NCBI GenBank assembly: GCA_045590995.1
Contig: JAZNRY010000101.1
Span: 5,823 to 69,822 of the forward strand
Length of the DNA: 64,000 nucleotides
Source: Paludibacteraceae bacterium
GTDB taxonomy: Bacteria; Bacteroidota; Bacteroidia; Bacteroidales; Paludibacteraceae
Reading direction: 5' to 3'
Below are positions 5,025 to 61,237 of this stretch, piece by piece. Position numbers and translations under genes: made by a program. Position 1 is the stretch's first letter; every line of letters begins with the position of its first letter. The notes under the pieces are model-generated. The model was not told the origin of the DNA. It was given only the letters and a program-made list of their open reading frames with translations, and searched no databases.

Positions 5025-5068
5025 CTCAATCTTAAGAAAAGTGCTTTTTTAGTCATATGGTCTTCTTT

Positions 5069-5112
5069 CGGAGTTCTCTCGGAGTTCTCTCGGTTGTCGG
5101 TCGGTGGAATAA
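5069..5112. repeat. 11-bp-period array
   Basis: CGGAGTTCTCT x2, CGGTTGTCGGT, CGGTGGAATAA. Confidence 0.7.
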
Positions 5113-5227
5113 GGCAAAGTATAAGAGAAGGAAAAGAGACGGCAATCTTAACAAAAGTGATAGTGTAGGGCGTAGCGTGTAAGGTGTAAAGGCGGAGATT
5201 GTATCTTCATCCTCCGAGGAAGTATAA

Positions 5228-5304
5228 GGAATAGTGCGCTTATTGTGCGCTTATTGTGCGTCTATTGTCCGTGTATTGTGCGTGAATAGTGCGTAATTGA
5301 CAAA
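5228..5304. repeat. 11-bp-period array (TATTGTGCG type)
   Basis: CTTATTGTGCG x2, TCTATTGTCCG, TGTATTGTGCG, TGAATAGTGCG, TAATTGACAAA. Confidence 0.85.
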
Positions 5305-7128: not shown

Positions 7129-7194
7129 GGAATTGTCCGTGTATTGTGCGTCTATTGTCCGTCTATTGTGCGTGAATAGTGCGTAATTGACAAG
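7129..7194. repeat. 11-bp-period array (TATTGTGCG type, second copy)
   Basis: TGTATTGTGCG, TCTATTGTCCG, TCTATTGTGCG, TGAATAGTGCG, TAATTGACAAG. The last ~44 bp nearly match 5261-5304. Confidence 0.85.
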
Positions 7195-9098: not shown

Positions 9099-9173
9099 CA
9101 CCGTGTTTTTCATGGTATTAGATTTAAGGTTAAGTAAAGATTGGGTTGTCGGGATGACAATCCTTCTTTTTTT
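9099..9173 (+). ncRNA. candidate short RNA (promoter to first terminator)
   Basis: A consensus promoter is followed about 50 nt later by a strong hairpin plus T-run. The alternative reading is a 32-aa hydrophobic peptide at 9112-9210. Confidence 0.3.
9143..9173 (+). terminator. intrinsic terminator after the orphan promoter
   Basis: GGGTTGTC-gggat-GACAATCC followed by TTCTTTTTTT. Confidence 0.5.
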
Positions 9174-9285
9174 ATGTATATCCATCCTTTCGGACTTTGG
9201 CCTCGCATAAAATGATCAGGTGTACCTTCGAGGACACCTTACCCTCGAAACTACGGTCGCATTATGAAGCCCATGTGCTACAAAA

Positions 9286-16408: not shown

Positions 16409-18694
16409 TTAAGTATCTACATCAACGGAAACGACAGTACCCTTGCAATCCGTCTGCTGCAAGACGAGGTGGATACATTCGTGCAACAGTTGCTTGGCAT
16501 GTCGGATATTCGCCCCTTGCTCAACACGCAGGCGCAGTTGGCGGATATATTGGTTGTTGCGACGAGAAACTTGCGGAGTAATCACGCTGGAGATACGAGT
16601 CCCAAAAATATCTTGTAATGCCTGCATTAATACACGACTGCAATGCTCCAAACGGCGTTCATCACGATGACGCAAAGTGATCATCATTAACCGATGAAAT
16701 GGGGGGAAATAGAACATTTTGCGTTCGCTAACTTGCTGTTGGTAGATTCCTTTGAAATCGTGTGCGCATAACATTGTATATAAAGGATTCTTGGGGTCGA
16801 AAGTCTGAATCATCACCTCTCCTTGCTTACCACTGCGCCCTGCACGACCAGACACTTGTTCCAGCATTTGAAATGCGTACTCTGTACTGCGAAAATCAGG
16901 TTGATTGACCAGCATATCCGCTTGCAAAACCACCACCAAGGAGACATCATCGAAATGTAGTCCTTTCGTAACCATTTGTGTGCCGATAAGAATATCCACT
17001 TCGTGGCGCGCGAAACGGTCAATGATATGCTGATAAGCGTCCTTGCGGCGCGTAGTATCCAAATCCATACGCGCCAAGCGCGCATTCGGAAAAAGTCCTT
17101 GTATCTCCTCCTCCAAACGCTCCGTGCCAAATCCTTGTAATCGCCAAGGCGTACTACATTTGGGGCAATGGGAGGTTAGGGGATTAGGCGATGAGGCAAC
17201 GAGGCGATGAGGCGAAGGGGTGTAGCCGCAAGAGTGACAGATGAGGGTGTTGTGGCTCTTGTGGAAAGTCATGCTGACATCGCAGTTGGGACACTTGGGA
17301 ACCTCACCACAATTTGGACACTGCAAGAAGGGGGCATACCCTCTGCGATTTTGGAATAAGATTACTTGCTTGCCTTTAGCAATCTCCTCACGAATACGAA
17401 ATACCACAGGGTCGGCAAAATGACCATACATCTCTTTGCGATGATATTGGCGCTGCAAGTCCACCAATGTAATCTTTGGCAACTGCAAACCGCGAAAACG
17501 CTCTGTCATTTCGACAAGACTGTATTTACCCGACAATGCATTGTGGTAAGATTCGATAGAAGGAGTGGCTGTGCCTAATAGTACTTTAGCACCATACCAC
17601 TGTGCCATCATTATTGCCGCTGAACGCGCATGGTAACGCGGAGCAGGGTCCTGTTGCTTGTAACTGGGTTCGTGTTCTTCGTCCACAATGACCAAACCTA
17701 AATTGGAGAAAGGCAAGAATATCGCCGAGCGGGCGCCAAGGATGAGATTTGGATATTGGATATTGGACGCTTCGCTATTGGATATTGGTAATAGGCTGGA
17801 ATATATCTCGGTGCGTTCGTCGCTACTGAAGCGCGAATGATAGACCAATACTTGATTGCCAAAAACGGCTTGTAAGCGTTCGGTGAGTTGGGTAGTCAGG
17901 GCAATCTCGGGTACGAGATAAAGAACTTGTTTGCCTTGCTTTAGCACCTCGTCTATGAGATGAATATACACCTCCGTCTTGCCACTGGAGGTTACGCCAT
18001 GCAAGAGGGTTACATTCTTTGTTTTCCAACTTGTGCGTATCTCTTCAATCGCTCTTGTTTGTTGAATATCAAGGGTGTGCAACGCTTGTATTTGCCCTGT
18101 ATATTGACGCAAACGCGAGACTGGTCGTTCTTCTTCTAAAAATATTCCCTTGTCAATGAGCGTGCGCAATATTGTGCTACTCACTTTGCTCTCTTCTAAT
18201 AGTACGCGGCGTTCCACACCATTGTTATTCATGCGCAGGAAACAACGCAAAAGTTGCTCCTGCGACTTGGCACGGCGCAGACTATTCAATGCTAATTCTT
18301 GCTGGCGAGGATCTGCAAGCGAAGGATGTAAGTGAATGTACTGAGTGGTGCGAGCAGTATAGTTGTCGTCGATGATTCCAGCGGGTAATGCCGCTGCCAT
18401 TACTTCGCCTAATGTGCACATGTAATACTCCGCCATCCATTGCCAAAGACGCAATTGATGGGGCGTAACAACGGGTTGAGTGTCAATAATATCCACAATA
18501 TCTCGCACCTTGACCGAAGCAGGCAACTCGCCTTCGTGAAGGCGATAAACAACACCCGTAATAGTCTTCTTGCCCAATGGTACTAATACGCGCATGCCTG
18601 CCAATGGTGTTGGCATATTAGATGGGACACGATAGGTGTAGGCATCGGCAATTGCCAAGGGTAAAATTATATCAATCAATATGGTGTTGGACAT
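16409..18694 (-). CDS. priA: primosomal protein N' (replication restart helicase)
   Basis: GVTSSGKTEVY Walker A, VDEEH, and Cys pairs CPNCGEVPKCPNCD...CHSCG...CPKC. It contains two repeat-derived in-frame segments (see findings). Confidence 0.95.
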   Translation of the reverse strand: MSNTILIDIILPLAIADAYTYRVPSNMPTPLAGMRVLVPLGKKTITGVVYRLHEGELPASVKVRDIVDIIDTQPVVTPHQLRLWQWMAEYYMCTLGEVMAAALPAGIIDDNYTARTTQYIHLHPSLADPRQQELALNSLRRAKSQEQLLRCFLRMNNNGVERRVLLEESKVSSTILRTLIDKGIFLEEERPVSRLRQYTGQIQALHTLDIQQTRAIEEIRTSWKTKNVTLLHGVTSSGKTEVYIHLIDEVLKQGKQVLYLVPEIALTTQLTERLQAVFGNQVLVYHSRFSSDERTEIYSSLLPISNSEASNIQYPNLILGARSAIFLPFSNLGLVIVDEEHEPSYKQQDPAPRYHARSAAIMMAQWYGAKVLLGTATPSIESYHNALSGKYSLVEMTERFRGLQLPKITLVDLQRQYHRKEMYGHFADPVVFRIREEIAKGKQVILFQNRRGYAPFLQCPNCGEVPKCPNCDVSMTFHKSHNTLICHSCGYTPSPHRLVASSPNPLTSHCPKCSTPWRLQGFGTERLEEEIQGLFPNARLARMDLDTTRRKDAYQHIIDRFARHEVDILIGTQMVTKGLHFDDVSLVVVLQADMLVNQPDFRSTEYAFQMLEQVSGRAGRSGKQGEVMIQTFDPKNPLYTMLCAHDFKGIYQQQVSERKMFYFPPFHRLMMITLRHRDERRLEHCSRVLMQALQDIFGTRISSVITPQVSRRNNQYIRQLRLRVEQGANIRHAKQLLHECIHLVLQQTDCKGTVVSVDVDT
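17171..17220 (-). repeat. 16-nt direct repeat translated inside the priA zinc-binding region
   Basis: AGGCGATGAGGCAACG and AGGCGATGAGGCGAAG. Encodes SPHRLVASSPNP between CHSCG and CPKC. Confidence 0.6.
17747..17795 (-). repeat. related ATTGGAT/ACGCTTCGCTATTGG repeat translated inside priA
   Basis: ATTTGGATATTGGATATTGGACGCTTCGCTATTGGATATTGGTAATAGG. Translated as LLPISNSEASNIQYPNL. Confidence 0.65.
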
Positions 18695-18752: not shown

Positions 18753-18837
18753 TATTCAACACATTTTTTTGTGTGATAGTGTGGAAGTGTGGAAGTAGAA
18801 TGGTTGATTGGTGTTGTATTTCTGCCTTGTCAAAATA

Positions 18838-18870
18838 GCCGAGGATAAGCCGAAGATAAGCCGAAGATAG
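18838..18870. repeat. 11-bp-period array
   Basis: GCCGAGGATAA, GCCGAAGATAA, GCCGAAGATAG. Confidence 0.8.
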
Positions 18871-26295: not shown

Positions 26296-26373
26296 AGCTA
26301 CTGGTATTGAAAAACAACTTTGGATTTTTTGTATTAACAACAACTTAATTAAAAAAAACAACTCAAACAACTT

Positions 26374-26399
26374 GCGCGGCAATCAACTTCCTGCCGCGC
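26374..26399. repeat. GC-hairpin repeat (REP-like), copy a
   Basis: GCGCGGCA-atcaacttcc-TGCCGCGC, preceded by AACAACTCAAACAAC. Confidence 0.75.
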
Positions 26400-26425
26400 T
26401 AAGGAATTATTTTTAGGTATGTTAG

Positions 26426-26848
26426 TTACTCGAATATATTTCCATTGTAAGTTAGTATCTCATTGATAGTTGGGTCGTAGAAATACCTTTCGATTTCAAT
26501 ATTTTTTGGTGCAAAGTTAACCAATACGCCAGATTTCACTTTGGTTAATCGCATATAATTAAATAATTGAGCACGATGCTCGGTATGTAGTTTCTCTACT
26601 GCTTTACACTCTATAATGTCTAAATCATGGTATATAAAATCCAATCGGTATGTCGCATTTAATTGTTTACCTCGATAGATTGGATGAAAAGTTTTTTCTC
26701 TCTCAAAAGAAAGCCCCTCTTCTGCTAACTCCAAACCCAATGCCTCTTGATATACATATTCATTCAATCCAGGTCCAAGTTCTTCATGTACCTTATAAAT
26801 AGCCCCTACAATCAAGTAGAGTAAATCTTTGAGTATATCTAATTTCAT
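26426..26848 (-). CDS. GxxExxY family protein (PD-(D/E)XK-like small protein)
   Basis: Trimmed to MKLDIL (ATG 26848). Literal signature G-L-N-E-Y-V-Y in ELGPGLNEYVYQEAL. The later DFIYHDLDIIECK is nuclease-core-like. Confidence 0.75.
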   Translation of the reverse strand: MKLDILKDLLYLIVGAIYKVHEELGPGLNEYVYQEALGLELAEEGLSFEREKTFHPIYRGKQLNATYRLDFIYHDLDIIECKAVEKLHTEHRAQLFNYMRLTKVKSGVLVNFAPKNIEIERYFYDPTINEILTYNGNIFE

Positions 26849-26859
26849 CTTATTCTTGA

Positions 26860-26885
26860 GCGCGCAAGGAAGTTGATTTGCGCGC
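26860..26885. repeat. GC-hairpin repeat, copy b (inverted relative to a)
   Basis: Reverse complement reads AACAACATAAACAAA-TTGCGCGCAA-atcaacttcc-TTGCGCGC. Confidence 0.75.
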
Positions 26886-26905
26886 AATTTGTTTATGTTG
26901 TTTTC

Positions 26906-28714
26906 TTAATCCGAAGCAACAATGTCTTGTACCATCATTTGGATGGTGGTATAATGGTTGAAGGTGTTTTCGTTGAGTTCGTAGCAGATGTCCACGGCAT
27001 TGCCGTTTTGAATATACTCTGCCATATCGGCACGCCCGAAGGCGATGCCTGTGATAGCGCTCATGCGGTCGGTGACATCCAATCGCAAATGCTCACGCTC
27101 TTTGCCCACAGCGCGCGTGTCGCGGTGATTGATCAGTCGGCGCGATACAAACAGCGGGCGCGGATTACCTGGACCAAAAGGTTCTAAGTGACGCAGCACA
27201 TTGTAGAAGGACTTGGTAATATCGCCCAACTGCAACTCTGCCTCAATATCCAATGTGGGTTGCAACTGATTCGGTTGTATATGCGCTGCCACATACGCTT
27301 CAAAGCGTTGCTTAAACTCTTGTAAATCATCAATATGCATGCTCAGTCCAGCCGCATATTTATGTCCGCCAAAGTTAGTGAGCAAGTCATGGCACGAATC
27401 AATAGCAGCATAGATATCAAATCCTCCTACCGAACGAGCCGAGCCTGAGATGATACCATCCTCGCCTGCGGTGAGAACGATAGTAGGACGGTAGTAGGTT
27501 TCTGTGAGGCGTGATGCGACAATACCCACAACGCCTTTGTGCCAATGAGGGGCATAGACTACGGTCGAATGGCGGTTAGCGAAGGCGGGGTCGTCTTGCA
27601 ATTGCAGCAATGCCTCTTTGGTGGTTTCTGTGTCGCAGTCGCGGCGGTCATCGTTGTGCTGATTGACTTCTTCTGCTTGTTGGCGTGCAAAAACAGGGTC
27701 GTCGGTCAGGAGCAGTTCTACGGCTGCGCGACCAGATTTCATGCGTCCACAAGCGTTGATGCGCGGCCCAATCTTATATACTAATTCATTGATTGTTATC
27801 TTCTTTGCCTCAATACCTGCCACTTGCATGATTGCCGATAAACCCGTGAAAGGTTGGGTGTTGAGTTGCTGAATACCGAAGTGCGCCAAGATTCGGTTTT
27901 CGCCTGTGATAGGCACGATATCCGAGGCAATGGACATAGCGAGCAACTGCAATAGTGGCAGAAGCCTCTCGCCTGATAGCCTAATAGCCTCATTGCCTTT
28001 CGCTTCAATTAAGTATCTTTGGGTATATGCTTGCGCCAGTTTGAAACCGACTCCGCAGCCTGAAAGGTCTTTGTATGGGTATGGGCAATCGCTGCGCTTC
28101 ATATTCAGCACTGCTACAGCATTGGGTAATTCGTCGCCAGGGGTATGGTGGTCGCAGACAATGACATCAATGCCTTTACTATTGGCGTAGGCGATTTTCT
28201 CAACGGCTTTGATACCGCAGTCAAGCGTGATAATCAGACTACATCCTTGCGCTACTGCGTAGTCTATACCTTGCGTGGATACGCCATAACCCTCGGTATA
28301 TCTATCGGGAATATAGTAGTCGATGTTGGACGGCGTTCCGCCTATTGGGTATTGGACGCCCTGCGGGCTATTGGCTATTTGACCATTATCCATTATCCCC
28401 TCCAAAAACCGATACATCAGTGCCACAGCAGTGGTGCCGTCCACATCATAGTCGCCGTAGATGAGGATTTTCTCGCCTCGTGTGATGGCTTGGTGCAGAC
28501 GCTCTACGGCTTTGTCCATGTCCTTCATGAGGAACGGATCATGCAGATTGTCCAGCGATGGGCGCACAAAAGCGCGTGCCTCATCAGCGGTCTGTATGCC
28601 ACGCACGACCAACATACGCGCGGCAGCGGAACTGATGTTCAGTTCGCGCTCCAACTGCTGTTGCACCTCCTGTTCCACCGCAGTCAAATGCCGTATGTTC
28701 CATTGGTAGGTCAT
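26906..28714 (-). CDS. recJ: single-stranded-DNA-specific exonuclease RecJ
   Basis: IYGDYDVDGTT, ITLDCG, VCDHH, and DHHA1 motif GGHKYAAG. It carries an in-frame repeat insert at 28325-28382. Confidence 0.95.
   Translation of the reverse strand: MTYQWNIRHLTAVEQEVQQQLERELNISSAAARMLVVRGIQTADEARAFVRPSLDNLHDPFLMKDMDKAVERLHQAITRGEKILIYGDYDVDGTTAVALMYRFLEGIMDNGQIANSPQGVQYPIGGTPSNIDYYIPDRYTEGYGVSTQGIDYAVAQGCSLIITLDCGIKAVEKIAYANSKGIDVIVCDHHTPGDELPNAVAVLNMKRSDCPYPYKDLSGCGVGFKLAQAYTQRYLIEAKGNEAIRLSGERLLPLLQLLAMSIASDIVPITGENRILAHFGIQQLNTQPFTGLSAIMQVAGIEAKKITINELVYKIGPRINACGRMKSGRAAVELLLTDDPVFARQQAEEVNQHNDDRRDCDTETTKEALLQLQDDPAFANRHSTVVYAPHWHKGVVGIVASRLTETYYRPTIVLTAGEDGIISGSARSVGGFDIYAAIDSCHDLLTNFGGHKYAAGLSMHIDDLQEFKQRFEAYVAAHIQPNQLQPTLDIEAELQLGDITKSFYNVLRHLEPFGPGNPRPLFVSRRLINHRDTRAVGKEREHLRLDVTDRMSAITGIAFGRADMAEYIQNGNAVDICYELNENTFNHYTTIQMMVQDIVASD
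28325..28382 (-). repeat. in-frame palindromic-unit repeat element (copy in recJ)
   Basis: TTGGACGGCGTTCCGCCTATTGGGTATTGGACGCCCTGCGGGCTATTGG. Translated as ANSPQGVQYPIGGTPSN. Confidence 0.8.
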
Positions 28715-29279: not shown

Positions 29280-29470
29280 CAGCGTGATTGAAAATGGGGG
29301 GTACGCTGTATATACATGGTGCAGGGACAAGGATACATAAAACAATAGCCTCCTTGCGCAGAGCGCAGAAATCTAAACTATCTAAACTAAAACGGGGATA
29401 TGATTAACAACAACACAAACAACAAGAATTATTTAAATCAACAACTTAAACAACATAAATCAACAACATT

Positions 29471-31042: not shown

Positions 31043-31075
31043 GAACCCGTCAAGAACCCGTCATGAACCCGTAAT
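31043..31075. repeat. 11-bp-period array
   Basis: GAACCCGTCAA, GAACCCGTCAT, GAACCCGTAAT. Confidence 0.8.
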
Positions 31076-31097: not shown

Positions 31098-31389
31098 CTA
31101 CCAAAATTATAAACAATTATAGTATATTAACCAAAATTATTTGGGAACTATATACATGTTGACACTTTATATCTCCTTGCCCTGCGGGCAGAAATCTAAA
31201 TAAATCTTTTTGCCACGCTATAGCCACGCTTTTACGAGGTACTCCGTAATATATTACCACCGTCTCCTCACATCGCCTTGAGCGATGCTCGTGCGACTAA
31301 ATCTTAAGTAAATGTGGCATGAATAACACGAAGTGTCAACTGATATATAAGTCCCAATTATTTTATTAACAACTTAAACAACATAAACG
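31098..31389 (+). ncRNA. conserved noncoding leader block, copy A (candidate structured RNA or cis element)
   Basis: 31160-31268 matches the reverse complement of 60217-60325 with about 6 mismatches in 109 nt. 31276-31356 matches 60036-60116 at roughly 85%. No ORF of 60 aa or more on either strand. Confidence 0.4.
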
Positions 31390-31859: not shown

Positions 31860-32705
31860 TCAAATCTTCTTGATTTCGAAGTGGTCCACATCTTTCCACA
31901 GCGGGAGCACCTCGCGGAAGTGGTGGAGTTTGGCAATATCAAAATCGGCAATCTTAGTGCCCTCTTCATCGTCTGCAAAAGACACAATCGGTTGCAAACG
32001 CGTATCATACGCCACCGAATGACCATTATAATGCAAGCCCATGCCGTCATCGCCCACGCAGTTCACCGCAGCAATATAGCACTGGTTCTCCGTAGCACGC
32101 GCTGCAATGAGCGCATCCCAATACTGAATACGAATATCGGGCCAGTTAGCTACCACCAAAATAATATCATAGTCACTTCCCGACTGATTGCGCGCCCAGA
32201 CAGGAAAACGCAAGTCGTAGCAGACAAGCAAGAGAATCTTCACACCCTGATACTCGAAGATACAGCGTTCCTCAGCAGGTCGGAAGAACTTATCCTCGCC
32301 TCCGTGGGCATACTGGTGGCGTTTGTCTTGTATCTGCACCTCGCCATGCGGCACTACCATAAAACCGCGGTTGACGAGCTTCGCTTGGCTATTGGACGGC
32401 GTTCCGCCTATTGGACGCCTTAAAGGGCTATTGGACGCTGCGCTATTGGAAATTGGGAAGCAGATGAATGAGCTCGTGATGGCTATCTCGTATTGGTCCG
32501 CTATGCGTTGGAGGGTGGTCATAATTTCCCCGTCCATTGTTTCTGCCAACTCAGGATGATTTGTGCAGAATCCTGTCGCAAACATCTCTGGCAGTACCGC
32601 CACATCGGCTTTCCCTGCCAATGCAGCGATACGCTGTTCTGCAAGGCGAAGGTTGGTCTCCTTATCCGCCCATGCGATGGGGTATTGTAGTAATGCTATT
32701 CGCAT
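31860..32705 (-). CDS. carbon-nitrogen hydrolase family amidohydrolase (YafV/omega-amidase-like)
   Basis: MRIALLQYPIAW..VAVLPEMFATGF (Glu) and LLVCYDLRFP (Cys). It carries an in-frame repeat insert at 32388-32457. Confidence 0.8.
   Translation of the reverse strand: MRIALLQYPIAWADKETNLRLAEQRIAALAGKADVAVLPEMFATGFCTNHPELAETMDGEIMTTLQRIADQYEIAITSSFICFPISNSAASNSPLRRPIGGTPSNSQAKLVNRGFMVVPHGEVQIQDKRHQYAHGGEDKFFRPAEERCIFEYQGVKILLLVCYDLRFPVWARNQSGSDYDIILVVANWPDIRIQYWDALIAARATENQCYIAAVNCVGDDGMGLHYNGHSVAYDTRLQPIVSFADDEEGTKIADFDIAKLHHFREVLPLWKDVDHFEIKKI
32388..32457 (-). repeat. in-frame palindromic-unit repeat element (copy in C-N hydrolase)
   Basis: ATTGGACGGCGTTCCGCCTATTGGACGCCTTAAAGGGCTATTGGACGCTGCGCTATTGG. 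Translated as SNSAASNSPLRRPIGGTPSN. Confidence 0.8.
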
Positions 32706-50338: not shown

Positions 50339-51007
50339 CTATAGCTTAATTTCCCATAAATAAGCAAAGTTTAGACTCAGACTCATTAAATTGGATTGAC
50401 TAAAATAGTCCACTTTTCGGTTGTTGTATATTGTGCCCATGCTGAAGTTGAATCGTGCTTCCAGTTGGAATAATCCAATCTTTCGTGTTCGGTAGTAACA
50501 CCCCAATCCGCCTGCCAGTCCCCAGTCAAAATGTTTGTCAATGGGTTGGTATTGTGGTTGAGTAATGAATGATGGCAGTTCCGTGGCTATGTCGCGGAAG
50601 CAGTATCCTATTTGTGGTCCCAAGTTGAGGAACGCACGAAATCGCTCTTTGCCGAAGTAAAGGTGCATCAGCAGTGGCACTTCTATGTAATCCAGTGTGC
50701 GATAGTATTCTATGGGTTGTGCTGTGTTGGTAATCGTCTCGTGCCATCCGCGTTGCATATAGTTGATTTCGGCTTGTATGGCACATACTTTGTGTCCTGC
50801 GTAGCGGAACACTATTCCTCCATTTGGAGAGAGTGGCGATTGCATGATGTTGATATTTGCCACACTCGGTTTCAACATAATCGTAGAAGCCATCACGCCG
50901 CCATGTACTCCGACATATAGTTCAGGTCGCCTAAGGCGAGGCTGCGCCATACTCATGACACTCAGGAGTAGCAATAGGATTAGAGTAATATGTCGTTGAC
51001 GAATCAT
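50339..51007 (-). CDS. outer-membrane beta-barrel (porin/PorT-like) protein
   Basis: Trimmed to MIRQRHITLILLLLLSVMSMAQ (ATG 51007, ATGA overlap with the upstream stop). Alternating beta-strand pattern. Confidence 0.5.
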   Translation of the reverse strand: MIRQRHITLILLLLLSVMSMAQPRLRRPELYVGVHGGVMASTIMLKPSVANINIMQSPLSPNGGIVFRYAGHKVCAIQAEINYMQRGWHETITNTAQPIEYYRTLDYIEVPLLMHLYFGKERFRAFLNLGPQIGYCFRDIATELPSFITQPQYQPIDKHFDWGLAGGLGCYYRTRKIGLFQLEARFNFSMGTIYNNRKVDYFSQSNLMSLSLNFAYLWEIKL

Positions 51008-52461
51008 TGATGAATGATATGTATATTGTGGTTTTCGTAGCCACTTTGTGGGGTGGTTTGTATGTAGTGTATATTGGCTTGTATGCCATTCCAACTCTCG
51101 TTGGTCAGTAGTGTTGTGTCGTTTGTCTGTTGGAGCATTGCCAGCAAATGTGCTGTCAGGTCATAACCCAAGAGGTCATATCTGGGTTGCGTAGAACTGA
51201 GTTCGTGGTTGAAGTATTGCTCAAACAGTTGCTCGTAGGAGTCGGGTACCATAAGCGCAGGAGAAAATACTGAGGTGTAGAGCTGCGGAAGAATAATCTT
51301 CTCGTTTTGCCACGAGTAGTGTGAGAATAGGGTTATGCGGTAGTTGCCACATGCTTTCAGCAGGTGTGGCATAACGGTTTGCAAGTTGGCGTAACGTTCG
51401 GTATTGAAGATAACAATGTTCTCTATGTCGCTGCGAAAGGCACTATCTATGGAGTCATTGAGTATCGCTTTGAGGGCGATGGTGGTAGTTGGCACCTCGT
51501 GTTGCTGCAGTGCTTTGTGCAGTGCCATAATGCCAGAAGGTATCACTTCGCCTTCTTTCTGCTCTATGAGTATGCAGTTCACGCTATCTTTGCGCTGTGC
51601 CAAGTAGCGTGCAAGGGTGTCTGCCTCTATTTGCTCCGAAGGGTTGAATTTCAGTGTGTGTGTGTATGGATTCTTTTTATCCAAGTGCGATAAGAAGGGT
51701 ATCAAGCACCAAATACTATCTTCTTGAATGGAGTCCAGCACAGTAGTTGTTTGTTGTGCATAAGCAGGACCTATGATAGCATGCATGGTGTGTATTTCAG
51801 GGTGCTGTGAGAGTACTTCTTTGGTGCGGCTGGTAGTCTTGCCTATGTCGTAGGTGAAGATTTCCATGTGTTGTCCACGATGTTGTGCTTCGTAGATAGC
51901 AATCAATGCACCTGCATAGAAATCGTAGAAACGCTCCATGTTCTTCTCTCGCTTGATTGCATTGGCATGCAGTGGCAAGAGCAGTGCCAAACGAATGGCT
52001 GTGCTGTCCAATGCTGCGAGTGTATCAACAGATAGGGTGTCCAACGCAAGCGTATCCAATGCAAGCGTGTCCACTGGCGTGTTGCTTATGATGGGTTTCT
52101 TGCGCTTTGTTTCTTTGTTTTCTTCGAAGAGTACCAACCGCTGGCGCTTCTTCTCTTTGACCTCCTTTGGTTTTGTTACTTGTTTGTCTTCTGTTGCTTT
52201 CAGTTTTGCAGGCACCAATATCACTTCGTCCATGCGCAGCCCTCTGTGTTGTAGTTGGGGGTTGGCCTTCAGTATCTCTTCTTGTGTCACACCGAAGTTC
52301 ACGCTAATGCGGTATAGCCCGATGCTTCGTTCAACGGTGTAGCGATAATACACTTGTCCGTTGATGGTGTCCAATGGATAATTCAGTCCTTCGCCTTGTG
52401 CAGGCATAGCCCATGCCAGTAGTGCAAGGCAAATGGCGATATATGTACCTATCTGTTTCAT
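51004..52461 (-). CDS. LysM-like domain plus periplasmic-binding-protein-like domain protein
   Basis: Signal peptide. YYRYTVERSIGLYRISVNFGVTQEEILKANP (LysM-like). A DTLALDTLALDTLSVDTL linker, then a type-1 PBP-like C-terminus. Confidence 0.5.
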   Translation of the reverse strand: MKQIGTYIAICLALLAWAMPAQGEGLNYPLDTINGQVYYRYTVERSIGLYRISVNFGVTQEEILKANPQLQHRGLRMDEVILVPAKLKATEDKQVTKPKEVKEKKRQRLVLFEENKETKRKKPIISNTPVDTLALDTLALDTLSVDTLAALDSTAIRLALLLPLHANAIKREKNMERFYDFYAGALIAIYEAQHRGQHMEIFTYDIGKTTSRTKEVLSQHPEIHTMHAIIGPAYAQQTTTVLDSIQEDSIWCLIPFLSHLDKKNPYTHTLKFNPSEQIEADTLARYLAQRKDSVNCILIEQKEGEVIPSGIMALHKALQQHEVPTTTIALKAILNDSIDSAFRSDIENIVIFNTERYANLQTVMPHLLKACGNYRITLFSHYSWQNEKIILPQLYTSVFSPALMVPDSYEQLFEQYFNHELSSTQPRYDLLGYDLTAHLLAMLQQTNDTTLLTNESWNGIQANIHYIQTTPQSGYENHNIHIIHQ

Positions 52462-55929: not shown

Positions 55930-55984
55930 TGTTTTTTATTCTTTTTAATTCAAAATTCGTAATTCAAAATTCACATAAAGCGTG

Positions 55985-56016
55985 CAAAATTACAAAAAAA
56001 ATTTGATATATGCAAA
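55985..56016 (-). promoter_or_regulatory. PPIase gene promoter (overlaps the divergent nrnA-like promoter)
   Basis: Reverse-strand TAATTTTG at 55985-55992 and TTTG at 56013-56016. Confidence 0.55.
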
Positions 56017-56032
56017 AAAAGTTGTACTTTTG
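56002..56032 (+). promoter_or_regulatory. nrnA-like gene promoter
   Basis: TTTG at 56002-56005 and TACTTTTG at 56025-56032. Confidence 0.6.
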
Positions 56033-56056
56033 CGGAGAATTTCACATAAAATAACA

Positions 56057-57166
56057 ATGGCAACGCTCACTCCTATTTTTTCGCAGGCGGAGATTTGTAC
56101 CGCGCAAGAGTTTATCAATCAGTCGAATAACATAGTTATTCTCACGCATATGTCGCCTGACGGCGATGCGATGGGGTCATCGTTGGCAATGCGCCATTTC
56201 TTAGAGGCGCAGGGCAAGCATGTGTCAGTGATTGTGCCGAATGCTTTTCCTGATTTTTTGGCTTGGTTGCCCAAGGCCAATGAGGATATTATTTACGAGA
56301 CGCATCGTGCAGAGGCAGACGCGTTGCTGGAGCAGGCAGATTTGGTCATTTGCACCGATTTCAACGAGCCAAAGCGCATTGGCTCGTTGGGCGATAAGCT
56401 CCTCTCGCTCACCTGTAAGAAGATGATGATTGACCACCATCTCCACCCAGCCGATTTCCCCGATTTGACCCTGTCTTATCCCTCTTCCCCCTCCACCTGC
56501 GAACTCGTATATCGATTAATAACATCCCTATCGCCAATAACCAATAGCCCGCAGGGCGTCCCATATCCAATAGGCGGAACGCCGTCCATTAACCAGAATA
56601 TAGCCACTTGCATCTATACGGGCATGATGACCGATACGGGCAATTTCTCTTTCAATTCCAATTACCCTGAAATGTATCAAATTGTCGGTGAATTAGTGTC
56701 TTTTGGCGTGAATAAGGACGAGATTTACAACCGTGTCTTCAATGCTTATTCGGCGGATCGTATGCGCCTTATGGGTTATTGTTTGTATCAGAAGATGCGT
56801 ATTTTCCCAGAGTGTCATACGGCGCTCATTTATTTGAGCCGCAAAGAGTTGTATCGTTTCAATTTCCAGTCGGGTGATGCAGAGGGTATTGTGAACTTGC
56901 CTTTGCAGATTAAGGATATTCACTATTCTTGTTTCATGCGCGAGGACAAGGTCAATCCTACCGAAGTGGCGTTAGCGGGAGGCAGCAAGACCAAGATTAA
57001 GATCTCGCTCCGCAGTCAGGGTGACCGTCCTGTGAATGTCTTTGCAAAGGATATTTTCGGCGGTGGTGGTCACGCCAATGCTTCGGGTGGCGAGTATTAT
57101 GGTCCTCTTATCGAAGCGGTGCAATTGTTTATTGATAATTATCCGCAATATTTCGCCAAAGAATAG
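56057..57166 (+). CDS. nrnA: DHH/DHHA1 phosphoesterase (NrnA-like oligoribonuclease/pAp phosphatase)
   Basis: Trimmed to MATLTPIF (ATG 56057, after promoter 56002-56032). HMSPDGDAMGS, MMIDHH, GGGGHANASGG. It carries an in-frame repeat insert at 56534-56593. Confidence 0.75.
   Translation: MATLTPIFSQAEICTAQEFINQSNNIVILTHMSPDGDAMGSSLAMRHFLEAQGKHVSVIVPNAFPDFLAWLPKANEDIIYETHRAEADALLEQADLVICTDFNEPKRIGSLGDKLLSLTCKKMMIDHHLHPADFPDLTLSYPSSPSTCELVYRLITSLSPITNSPQGVPYPIGGTPSINQNIATCIYTGMMTDTGNFSFNSNYPEMYQIVGELVSFGVNKDEIYNRVFNAYSADRMRLMGYCLYQKMRIFPECHTALIYLSRKELYRFNFQSGDAEGIVNLPLQIKDIHYSCFMREDKVNPTEVALAGGSKTKIKISLRSQGDRPVNVFAKDIFGGGGHANASGGEYYGPLIEAVQLFIDNYPQYFAKE
56534..56593 (+). repeat. in-frame palindromic-unit repeat element (copy in nrnA-like gene)
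   Basis: Reverse complement of the recJ copy, about 45 of 49 nt identical. Translated as ITNSPQGVPYPIGGTPSI. Confidence 0.8.
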
Positions 57167-57973: not shown

Positions 57974-59002
57974 TTAAATCCTTGTCTTCGCATACGGTGC
58001 CGCATCCACGGGACAGAACTCTCTCTTCAGGTACTTATAGTACCCTGCTTGCGCCACCATCGCGGCATTGTCCGTCGTGTAGGCAAACGGTGGGATATGC
58101 ACTTTCCAGTGATGGCGTTTGCCCAAGTCAAGGAGTGCATCGCGCAGTCCGCTGTTGGCGCTCACGCCGCCTGCCACGGCAATCTCTTTTATCCCCATAT
58201 CCTTGGCTGCTTGCTTCAGCTTATTGATAAGAATATCAATGATGGTCTTCTGCAACGAAGCGCACAAATCCGCTTTGTGTTCCTCGATGAAATCGGGATT
58301 TTCTTTCAGTTGGTCGCGCAGGAAATAGAGGAACGAGGTCTTCAGTCCCGAGAACGAGTAGTTGTATTCGGGTATATGGGGTTTGCTGAATTGGAACGCC
58401 TCGGCATTGCCTTCTTTGGCAAGTCGGTCTATCCATGGTCCGCCGGGGTAGGGCAGTCCCATGATCTTCGCGCACTTGTCGAACGCTTCGCCTGCGGCGT
58501 CATCAATCGTCTGTCCGATGATCTCCATGGTGTAGTGGTCTTTTACCAGCACAATCTGACTATTTCCCCCACTCACCAACAAACACAGAAAAGGGAAGCC
58601 TGGCTCCCGGTTCCCGGTATCCGTGCCTTTCGCCTCGATGAAATGGGCTAAAATATGCGCTTGCAGGTGGTTCACTTCCACCAGTGGTATGTCTTGTGCG
58701 AGTGCCAATCCTTTGGCGAAACTGGTGCCTACCAGCAGGCTACCCAACAACCCAGGTCCTCGTGTGAAGGCAATCGCGCTCAGTTGGTCTGCCGTCACGC
58801 CTGCGCGTTTGAGGGCGGCATCTACTACGGGTACGATGTTCAGTTGGTGCGCACGGCTGGCGAGTTCGGGTACTACGCCGCCGAACTCCTCGTGTACGCC
58901 TTGCGAAGCGGTCACATTGCTCAATAGCAGCCCATCACGAATGACTGCTGCCGAGGTGTCGTCGCAACTCGATTCTATCGCTAAAATAATGGTCTCTTTC
59001 AT
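57974..59002 (-). CDS. tsaD: tRNA N6-adenosine threonylcarbamoyltransferase
   Basis: ILAIESSCDDTSAAV, GVVPELASRAH, LLVSGG, GGVSAN. Confidence 0.95.
   Translation of the reverse strand: MKETIILAIESSCDDTSAAVIRDGLLLSNVTASQGVHEEFGGVVPELASRAHQLNIVPVVDAALKRAGVTADQLSAIAFTRGPGLLGSLLVGTSFAKGLALAQDIPLVEVNHLQAHILAHFIEAKGTDTGNREPGFPFLCLLVSGGNSQIVLVKDHYTMEIIGQTIDDAAGEAFDKCAKIMGLPYPGGPWIDRLAKEGNAEAFQFSKPHIPEYNYSFSGLKTSFLYFLRDQLKENPDFIEEHKADLCASLQKTIIDILINKLKQAAKDMGIKEIAVAGGVSANSGLRDALLDLGKRHHWKVHIPPFAYTTDNAAMVAQAGYYKYLKREFCPVDAAPYAKTRI
58604..58624 (-). repeat. three tandem 7-mers (21 nt, in frame) inside tsaD
   Basis: CTCCCGG TTCCCGG TATCCGT. Encodes part of GTDTGNREPG, just before the conserved FPFL..VSGG. 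Confidence 0.45.
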
Positions 59003-59550: not shown

Positions 59551-59604
59551 AAATGTTGTTGGATTAAGTTGTTTAAGTTGTTGATTAAAATAATTCTTTT
59601 TGTT

Positions 59605-59997
59605 TTATTCCTGCTCTTTCGCTTGGGTGTGTAGGGTGTGGAATATATACCCGTATAGTGTCCTAATGACGGACTTTCGGCGCGATGAATAGGGCAAATA
59701 GTCGTTTGATGAAGCGGAGCGTTTGTACGATGGATTATGTTTCTTCGTGTATGCAGCAAACTCTTTTTCCCATTTTGTGCGTTTTGCTGGGTCTGCCATT
59801 TCGGCGTGTACTTGTTTAGAAATCTCGCCGAACAGTGATGAGTTGCGTTTTTGTGTTTCCGATGGGGGTTGCTCATTGGGGTGCATGACTATATAGGCAT
59901 GGGTACGACCATTGCGCATACGATAAACCACTTGTTGGTGTTTGGATATCGAACCAGCCACCGCTGCTATAGGAGCATCAAGAAGAATTTTTGCCAT
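59605..59997 (-). CDS. small basic protein, paralogue family member P2
   Basis: 130 aa. MAKILLDAPIAAVAGSISKHQQVVYRMRNG...PSETQKRNSSLFGEISKQVHAEMADPAKRTKWEKEF...VIRTLYGYIF. Preceded by a ~420-nt conserved leader. Confidence 0.6.
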   Translation of the reverse strand: MAKILLDAPIAAVAGSISKHQQVVYRMRNGRTHAYIVMHPNEQPPSETQKRNSSLFGEISKQVHAEMADPAKRTKWEKEFAAYTKKHNPSYKRSASSNDYLPYSSRRKSVIRTLYGYIFHTLHTQAKEQE

Positions 59998-59999
59998 AA

Positions 60000-60416
60000 T
60001 TGTTTATATTGTTGTTTATAGTTTGCTTTTAGTTTTGGGATTTATATACTTGTTGACCCTTTGTGTTATTCCCGCCACATTTACTGAAGATTTAGTCGTA
60101 CGATCATCGCTCAAGGTCTATCGGGGTCCCCGAAAATTTTTAATTTTTGGGGAGAGGAGAAATGGCGGCAAGCCAAACTCGCACGCGAGTTTCATCTTGC
60201 AAGCCCATTTCGACGAAGGAGACGGTGGTAATATATTACGGAGTACCTCGTAAAAGCGCGGCTTAAGTGTGGCAAAAAGATTTATTTAGATTTCTGCCCG
60301 CAGGGCAAGGAGATATTCAGTGTCACCATGCCTAATAATTCGCTTCATTCGCCGTTCCAAATAAATAATTTTGGTTAATCTTCTATAATTTTGGTAGCGC
60401 AAATCACTTTCGCCTG
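60000..60416 (-). ncRNA. conserved noncoding leader block, copy B, with a 100-nt structured insert
   Basis: Begins right after the consensus promoter at 60417-60448. Homologous to copy A, except that 60117-60216 replaces 7 nt of copy A. Confidence 0.4.
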
Positions 60417-60499: not shown

Positions 60500-60609
60500 C
60501 CGATAGATAACCGATACATAACCGATACATTACCGACACATAACCGATACATATGAATACCCCGTGAATACTCCCCGAATACTCTGCGAATATCCCATGA
60601 ATACCCCTA
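60500..60609. repeat. 11-bp-period array, ten units of two sequence types
   Basis: CCGATAGATAA, CCGATACATAA, CCGATACATTA, CCGACACATAA, CCGATACATAT, then GAATACCCCGT, GAATACTCCCC, GAATACTCTGC, GAATATCCCAT, GAATACCCCTA. Confidence 0.85.
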
Positions 60610-60983: not shown

Positions 60984-61237
60984 AATGTTGTCTATGTTGT
61001 CTTCTTAACCAACGGCACTCCTTGTCTCCGTGTCCATCCGTGCCATCCGTGGGATGTTATATCTCCTTGCCGCAGATCATTGTTGGCGAATCGGAAGAGT
61101 TGTCTATGTTGTCTTCTTAACCACCCGATTCCTTGTCTCCGTGTCCATCCGTGTCATCCGTGGGCGGTTATATCTCCTTGCCGCAGATCATTGTTGGCGA
61201 ATCGGGAATGTTGTCTATGTCGTCTTCCAAAAACTTA
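60983..61237. repeat. tandem repeat, ~111-112 bp unit, about 2.2 copies
   Basis: TTGTCTATG starts at 60988, 61100 and 61211. Each unit contains CCATCCGTG subrepeats and ATATCTCCTTGCCGCAGATC. Confidence 0.85.

Follow-up and report, generated by a model that had tools for sequence, protein, structure and literature searches.

Palindromic repeats inside genes have been documented both for repetitive extragenic palindromic sequences (REPs; PMC3733652) and for Rickettsia palindromic elements (RPEs; PMC10969869). RPEs are in-frame palindromic repeats of Rickettsia genes (Ogata et al. 2000, 2002, summarised in PMC10969869 and PMC3733652). GTAG- and CGTC-tagged REPs measure 20–40 bp, the CGTC families having an 8–9-bp stem, with A/T at its first two positions, and a 4–5-nt loop (PMC3733652); REPs are mostly extragenic and form head-to-head dimers, tandem arrays being negligible for CGTC repeats (Di Nocera et al. 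2013, PMC3733652). A gene for a REP-associated tyrosine transposase (RAYT, TnpA-REP), flanked by the repeats, is a further feature of REPs (PMC3733652). Many intragenic REP copies reside in replication and repair genes, and CGTC repeats have been reported in Bacteroidetes without a dedicated transposase (PMC3733652). Here, we analysed a stretch of 64,000 nucleotides (hereafter the window) from a Paludibacteraceae bacterium (assembly GCA_045590995.1, contig JAZNRY010000101.1, positions 5,823 to 69,822), in which an array of very small palindromic modules lies inside a gene for an NrnA-like DHH/DHHA1 phosphoesterase (nrnA). We consider it likely that this array is a copy of a short dispersed palindromic repeat family of REP- or RPE-like type, abundant in Paludibacteraceae and translated as loop insertions that are filtered by selection.

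Like RPEs, the element is a dispersed palindromic repeat found in frame in many unrelated, apparently functional genes, with a conserved peptide; the insertions are judged compatible with the protein fold (here at four sites in the window), intergenic copies exist as well and no dedicated transposase is known. The two differ in size, RPEs being ~100–150 bp long, whereas the present arrays of 40–90 nt are built of 15–20-nt modules and hold no long palindrome, and in their hosts, which are obligate intracellular Alphaproteobacteria for RPEs and free-living gut Bacteroidota here. The likeness is one of analogy, not homology; no sequence relationship was detected.

With REPs, the element shares short GC-rich palindromes with conserved unpaired flanks; ATAG precedes the stem on its 5′ side, and C-GTC-C, with CGTC inside it, stands at its 3′ end. 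The tags resemble those of REPs without an exact match in position, as the REP tag is separate and unpaired, whereas here it overlaps the stem: the G of ATAG is paired, and CGTC is made up of the last stem C plus GTC. The cores are 7–15 nt long, with 3–6-bp stems and mostly 3-nt loops, the arrays run head to tail instead of forming head-to-head dimers, and about two-thirds of the copies are genic rather than mostly extragenic. The replication and repair hosts seen here (RecJ, PriA, topoisomerase, Mfd and MutS2) recall those of intragenic REPs, as a resemblance only.

Cyanobacterial small dispersed repeats (SDRs, 21–27 nt) and the heptameric short tandemly repeated repetitive (STRR) sequences, reportedly described by Elhai and colleagues in 2008, are said to comprise tiny dispersed hairpins at intergenic as well as genic positions. 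To our knowledge, SDRs have no known mobilising enzyme, and a strong one-frame coding bias is not a described feature of theirs. On this description, the likeness lies in the ~20-nt hairpin size and in the tandem heptamer runs; the phylum is another one and there is no relationship in sequence. Units of 33 and 54 nt are duplicated in tandem and in frame, and array lengths are polymorphic between close orthologs, which also resembles the behaviour of variable number tandem repeats (VNTRs). Yet ordinary VNTRs are locus-specific, whereas the same modules occur here at ~30 unrelated loci and in intergenic DNA. We found no report in the literature of such repeats in Paludibacteraceae or other Bacteroidales.

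The nrnA array and its relatives

The 60-mer at the centre of the original prediction (window 56534–56593, plus strand) lies within the plus-strand open reading frame (ORF) 55982..57166; homologs begin at the ATG at 56054, which is the probable start of the gene. The encoded protein aligns end to end with the structures of Bacteroides-type NrnA homologs (3W5W/4PY9, E = 8e-98). Read along the gene, the array consists of the heptamer CCAATAA, a 19-nt module (CCAATAG-CCCGCAGGGC-GT), a 7-nt spacer (CCCATAT), a second 19-nt module (CCAATAG-GCGGAACGCC-GT) and CCATTAAC, a degenerate linker; as predicted, it is placed directly before ..IATCIYTGMMTDTGNF. Features of this array and of the other copies in the window are collected in Table 1.

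The claim that the same element resides in recJ was borne out by a repeat finder, which paired 56536–56588 with 28327–28379 in inverted orientation, at 94% identity across 53 nt. The two host genes lie on opposite strands, and orientation and frame relative to the host are indeed preserved (..NSPQGVPYPIGGTPS.. in nrnA, ..NSPQGVQYPIGGTPS.. in recJ). Three window copies have exactly in common the 21-mer CCAATAGGCGGAACGCCGTCC, which was found in none of 100 dinucleotide-preserving shuffles. Owing to differences between the copies at the spacer and the 3′ end, a 54-mer query with up to 3 mismatches recovered no copy but its own; the others were found by the repeat finder and the 21-mer core. The priA copy, a fourth one that the original prediction lacked, is made up of CCAATAT heptamers and one 15-nt module with a GCGAAGC mini-hairpin; in Tandem Repeats Finder it comes out as a run of period 7, and it shares the orientation and phase of the other window copies.

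Table 1. Repeat arrays of the window, their mini-hairpins and their host genes
Feature	Position	Strand	Description	Host protein against solved homologs
Repeat array, NrnA-like gene	56534..56594	+	translated as PITNSPQGVPYPIGGTPSIN	14-residue gap exactly at PITNSPQGVPYPIG vs PDB 3W5W/4PY9
Mini-hairpin 1, GCCC-GCA-GGGC	56547..56557	+	4-bp stem, GNA-type triloop; folded as DNA	
Mini-hairpin 2, GGCG-GAA-CGCC	56573..56583	+	folded as DNA; inside 21-mer 56567–56587	
Host gene, NrnA-like DHH/DHHA1 phosphoesterase, intact	56054..57166	+	Pfam DHH 6e-20, DHHA1 1e-5	
recJ copy	28326..28381	-	translated as QIANSPQGVQYPIGGTPSN	~20 extra residues vs structure 8Y30
Host gene recJ	26906..28714	-	DHH, DHHA1, RecJ_OB domains	
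Four-module copy, carbon-nitrogen hydrolase gene	32373..32457	-	translated as PISNSAASNSPLRRPIGGTPSNSQAKLV, includes ..PISNSAASNSPLRRPIGGTPSNSQ..	~22 extra residues; alignment to 2E11 splits at array into 1–79 and 108–277
Host gene, CN_hydrolase family	31860..32705	-	Pfam	
Short copy in priA	17747..17788	-	translated as PISNSEASNIQYPN; peptide LPISNSEASNIQYPN	6-residue gap vs 8FAK
Host gene priA	16409..18694	-	E = 6e-116 to PriA structures	

The element is modular, a feature likewise absent from the original prediction, with linkers of 7–9 nt (GTCC-AATA-G; ..GTCC-[A/C]ATA-G..) between small perfect palindromes that start with G, end with C and have a 3–6-bp stem and a 2–5-nt loop, often G-N-A (e.g., GCCC-GCA-GGGC, GGCG-GAA-CGCC, GCGAAGC and GCCCT-TT-AGGGC). 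Arrays of ~40–90 nt are strung together, head to tail, from modules of 15, 19 or 20 nt and interspersed CCAATAN heptamers. In 881 kb of related sequence, a stem of 3 bp or more separated ATA from GTCC in 290 modules, compared with ~20 in shuffles. These 290 modules comprise 87 distinct cores with many different stems, and 35 of the 43 distinct cores with at least 4 stem positions are perfect palindromes. The peptide also varies from module to module (NSPQGV, NSPLGR, NSPSGR, NSSSER, NSALAR and others). Since stems are kept across 87 differing cores, the conserved feature is the palindrome itself, not its sequence. In the register of ATAG plus core, palindromes were not enriched, the G of ATAG being itself part of the stem. 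Rfam 15 gave no match at gathering score at any of the four window arrays. As for the features of miniature inverted-repeat transposable elements, terminal inverted repeats are absent and no target-site duplication is discernible; the boundaries are formed by linker heptamers.

A scan of species-representative genomes with the exact 21-mer yielded at least 115 stretches, on which the following locus counts rest; among those listed, almost all belong to Paludibacteraceae metagenome-assembled genomes (MAGs) from the guts of ruminants and other animals. The window is syntenic with one listed Paludibacteraceae MAG, at 80–89% nucleotide identity, and the 21-mer was absent from the viral contigs searched. 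The core of mini-hairpin 1 was seen 25 times in the fetched loci. About two-thirds of the copies are genic (87 of 128 inside ORFs, by crude gene calling), and among the matches listed these genic copies fall into ~28 unrelated host families, 23 of them with clear Pfam domains. Hosts include RecJ, topoisomerase, Mfd, MutS2, TsaD, MnmA, MurG, MurF and NlpC/P60 proteins, a sigma-54 activator, MatE, CobW, aldehyde dehydrogenase, GH77 and M16 peptidase, as well as OEP, MBOAT, VapE-like, CN-hydrolase and NrnA proteins. Several host families carry copies at two different sites, e.g., RecJ in locus L017. An exact 21-nt sequence and near-identical composites of 45–53 nt recur at ~30 unrelated sites and in intergenic DNA.

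We also noted an accessory-gene island (L064:900–5250) with mini-hairpin repeat arrays, in both orientations, in every spacer. Its genes encode an AAA_14/DUF4143 ATPase, DUF5675 and DUF3791/DUF3990 proteins, and there was no transposase among these repeat-flanked genes.

Frame, orientation and position in host proteins

Use of a single frame at all three loci had been attributed to selection for a stop-free, loop-compatible reading. The single frame and its compatibility with loops were upheld; stop-freeness as the explanation was not. When the consensus is translated in six frames, only two contain stops, all three reverse-strand frames being open; because four of the six frames are open, stop-freeness cannot explain the use of one. 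Our frame census covered 131 exact matches, 128 in the fetched loci and 3 in the window. The phase CCA ATA GGC GGA ACG CCG TCC (PIGGTPS) lay in a frame of at least 120 codons in 90 of the 131, the other stop-free phase of a single module in none and reverse frames in 11, and 30 had no long ORF. Crude gene calls on the 128 locus matches placed 83 copies in sense, 4 in antisense and 41 between genes, so that the genome-wide check proposed with the original prediction spoke strongly in its favour, with 83 sense against 4 antisense genic copies among the matches listed.

Three of the 4 antisense copies are less than 75 nt away from the called ORF start and probably precede the true one. The only convincing one is in CinA (L068:1344–2744, minus strand), where ..NGRRSAYWVMDALRA.. 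falls in the linker between the MoCF and KH domains. Counted by host family, ~28 families use one forward phase against 1 convincing antisense family; 27 of 28, compared with the one in four expected for stop-free frames, corresponds to a binomial p of ~1e-15. By contrast, the 41 intergenic copies are mixed, independent loci being co-oriented about as often as anti-oriented with both neighbours. The orientation bias is specific to coding sequence, because intergenic copies occur in both orientations, and it points to selection on the translated product rather than to oriented (transcription- or replication-coupled) insertion. A replication-linked orientation was considered separately and rejected: both orientations occur on one replichore of the window, with no switch of GC skew between the copies, and opposite genic copies lie 6 kb apart in L010.

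Every module carries a TAG and module lengths are not multiples of three; therefore, a pair of modules usually closes two of the forward frames and keeps the third one open. Genic modules add up to whole codons (20+19 = 39, 19+7+19 = 45 and 15+20+19 = 54). In the C-CAA-TAN phase, 85 of 87 genic heptamers end in T or C, compared with 34 of 105 intergenic ones (Fisher p ~1e-23), and in the AAT-AGx phase the G is kept in 143 of 162. That stops are avoided in this phase-specific manner indicates that ribosomes translate the arrays. Peptides of the used frame consist to 60–76% of P/G/S/T/N/Q, with 0–10% charged residues; those of the reverse frames, which go unused, abound in W, Y, L and R and are 32–55% hydrophobic or aromatic. 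Peptide compatibility appears to be the factor that discriminates the frame used.

The proposed loop compatibility also agrees with the structures of homologs, since all four window copies, the four sites examined, coincide with alignment gaps in solved homologs (Table 1). In an AlphaFold2 model of the NrnA-like protein, residues 162–177 form a coil, with a predicted local distance difference test score (pLDDT) below 50, between helices 148–159 and 181–193. The nrnA array would thus be translated as a disordered loop of ~14–20 aa between two helices of the DHH domain, and it most likely has no function of its own.

Copying, turnover and rival explanations

Collectively, these comparisons demonstrate the dispersal of identical modules to ~30 unrelated sites and their local tandem expansion; as far as can be read from the arrays themselves, they also demonstrate translation, filtering by frame, stops and peptide type, and location in loops. 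A scheme for the repeat family would run as follows. Arrays would be copied, in either orientation, to further genomic sites, and would then grow or shrink locally by tandem duplication of whole composite units, the latter being the step already demonstrated. Two or more modules would leave a single open forward frame, whose peptide is flexible and uncharged and consists largely of Pro, Gly, Ser, Asn and Thr (such as the recJ peptide above). In genes, purifying selection would keep arrays of whole-codon length, in the sense frame, with no in-frame TAG and in a surface loop or interdomain linker, and would presumably remove all but these sense, in-frame, loop-located copies.

With low confidence, we regard a single-strand-DNA HUH/Y1 enzyme of the REP-associated tyrosine transposase (RAYT) type, recognising the hairpin and its flank, as the leading candidate for the copying agent, because TnpA-Y1 subclasses 2.4 and 2.6, whose associated hairpin repeats are atypical, are present in Bacteroidetes (PMC6006769). 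Template switching at heptamer repeats offers an alternative route. More tentatively than the repeat-family reading itself, we suggest that these repeats may form a distinct, ultra-small class, in which a 15–20-nt G...C mini-hairpin with a 9-nt linker, set on heptamer runs, spreads without the known kinds of transposase, e.g., by hairpin-guided template switching or an unrecognised single-strand-DNA enzyme, gives rise to lineage-specific sister families and repeatedly colonises permissive loops.

Several observations weigh against a mobile, selection-filtered repeat family. A motif filter over ~0.95 Mb of DNA found no HUH/Y1, RAYT/IS200-type or other mobilising gene, a weak negative. The filled-versus-empty comparison at nrnA and tsaD gave no clean pair and no footprint, target site or duplication; no footprint can be read there because the loops have diverged in every lineage. 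Predicted folding energies are not better than those of shuffles (z -0.6 to +0.65), and the hairpin evidence is covariation alone, not thermodynamics. The AlphaFold2 model is of only moderate quality (mean pLDDT 70). Locus selection relied on a single exact 21-mer, and many copies are orthologs of one another; what counts as independent are the ~30 sites, not the 131 matches. Finally, a genic share of two-thirds is more than one would expect of insertions that are purely deleterious and removed by selection, and may reflect a preference for coding DNA or an unseen benefit.

Compared across orthologs 80–99% identical, as the stretch between ELVYRLI and IATCIYTGMM, the nrnA site is a hotspot with different repeats in different lineages, which the original prediction had not included. 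Its states comprise a short linker (LSDDGQLST), the one unit of the window, heptamer-only runs, other short repeats and, in L117, two or three tandem 33-nt units (the 33-nt unit three times). Orthologous arrays diverge like the flanking coding DNA (0.85–0.93 vs 0.86–0.90), and because the two divergences are alike the arrays appear to be inherited vertically, with gains and losses of whole modules. An extra nucleotide conservation of arrays between orthologs, suggested by 63/63 identity with L117, does not generalise and was discarded.

Related observations were made at and beyond this site. A sister repeat family occupies the nrnA site in L118:1501–2886 and in P0114, P0117 and P0027; its 15-nt units carry the linker GATCTTCA, in place of GTCCAATA here, and the same mini-hairpins (GCGCAGC, GGC-GTA-GCC), and encode DLQRS... 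arrays of up to ~95 aa with faint Pfam 'pentapeptide' matches. Another hotspot loop follows HLQAHILAHFI in TsaD (tsaD, window 57974–59002), where the window, which has no array there, reads EAKGTDTGNREPG, L117 reads RTGIGDRRSGIGEREADTPS and L081 has an array of 2 x 54 nt. At window 52040–52073, a 15-nt tandem repeat, TCCAA(C/T)GCAAGCGT(A/G), lies antisense inside ORF 51004–52461. The peptide encoded there consists of DTLAL repeats, and the tandem repeat may be distantly related to the 15-nt module, in this case read from the opposite strand.

Some of these dynamics would also fit an origin in place. On that account, which we regard as unlikely, the arrays are not mobile: CCAATAN microsatellites would slip in permissive loops, hairpins would form by local template switching, and ectopic gene conversion would make copies alike. 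It can draw on the period-7 runs on which the arrays are built, on their expansion by tandem duplication, on the different repeats held by the nrnA site in each lineage, and on the failure to find a transposase, terminal inverted repeats or a target duplication. Nevertheless, independent origin cannot yield the identity seen among the 21-nt sequences and 45–53-nt composites of ~30 unrelated sites and intergenic DNA, and conversion needs a pre-existing homologous array at each site; therefore, some copying between loci is still required.

A role of the hairpins in mRNA or DNA, with the peptide as a tolerated by-product, strikes us as improbable. Under this explanation, the hairpins would be selected for translational pausing during domain folding, for mRNA stabilisation, or as a protein-binding or topology site, in keeping with the retention of stems through many sequences, with the position of several intergenic copies in 5′ untranslated regions or just upstream of terminators, and with the view that REPs act as RNA or DNA elements (PMC3733652). 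However, intergenic copies have no consistent orientation to transcription, and the folding energy of the arrays is unexceptional. The stems are perfect Watson-Crick ones, G.U-type against A.C mismatches numbering 3 vs 1, with no clear excess in an underpowered comparison, and the array content turns over fast at the nrnA site in host proteins that are 83–99% identical.

Even less credible is the idea that the inserted peptide is a functional module, a linker or short linear motif that was positively selected and spread among genes. The identity of PIGGTPS in many proteins and the almost exclusive use of one frame would fit it, yet the same DNA occurs between genes in both orientations, adjacent modules keep the palindrome while the peptide changes, the hosts are functionally unrelated and include cytoplasmic as well as membrane proteins, and at the same site close orthologs have either no array or unrelated repeats. 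An artefact of assembly or sequencing, the refuter named in the original prediction, can be set aside with near certainty, as reading frames are intact and many independent assemblies contain orthologs with this insert, some of them 99% identical (ortholog clusters P0001, with 23 member sequences, and P0002, with 21).

Other repeats in the window and implications

The window holds further repeats. Many tandem repeats of 11-nt period, with units that differ, lie between genes, at 5063–5294, 7132–7184, 18837–18869, 31043–31072 and 60500–60607. A 111-nt tandem repeat (2.2 copies, 91% identity) spans 60987–61227. Dispersed intergenic repeats pair 31155–31357 with 60035–60330, 29417–29470 with 59552–59605, and 26352–26407 with 26852–26907, and include the hairpin-bearing motif TTGCGCGGCAATCAACTyCCTGCCGCG. 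One such pair flanks a small PD-(D/E)XK (PF13366) ORF, 26426–26887, which adjoins a DUF3987 gene; judging by their layout, these look like small accessory cassettes bounded by dispersed repeats. The window's only Rfam match, at 9103–9176 on the plus strand (77 bits, above gathering score), is to FopS, a small RNA family of Bacteroidetes.

In-frame selfish DNA in genes has so far largely been treated as a curiosity of Rickettsia and a few REP-rich Proteobacteria. In many uncultured gut Paludibacteraceae, an unrelated and much smaller repeat appears to do likewise, in core genes such as those for RecJ, PriA, Mfd, MutS2, TsaD and MurG, and it does so with unusually clear signatures of selection, namely the use of one of four open frames, phase-specific stop avoidance and unbiased intergenic copies. 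The arrays provide a natural experiment on which loops of conserved enzymes tolerate 5–40 extra residues, and on how repeat dynamics lead to variation in protein length. They also call for caution, as such repeats inflate and vary the gene lengths of MAGs and can seed misassembly and spurious low-complexity or "pentapeptide" annotations. Should these ultra-small repeats indeed form a class of their own, they would act as a general and ongoing source of new loop and linker sequence in the housekeeping proteins of this family.

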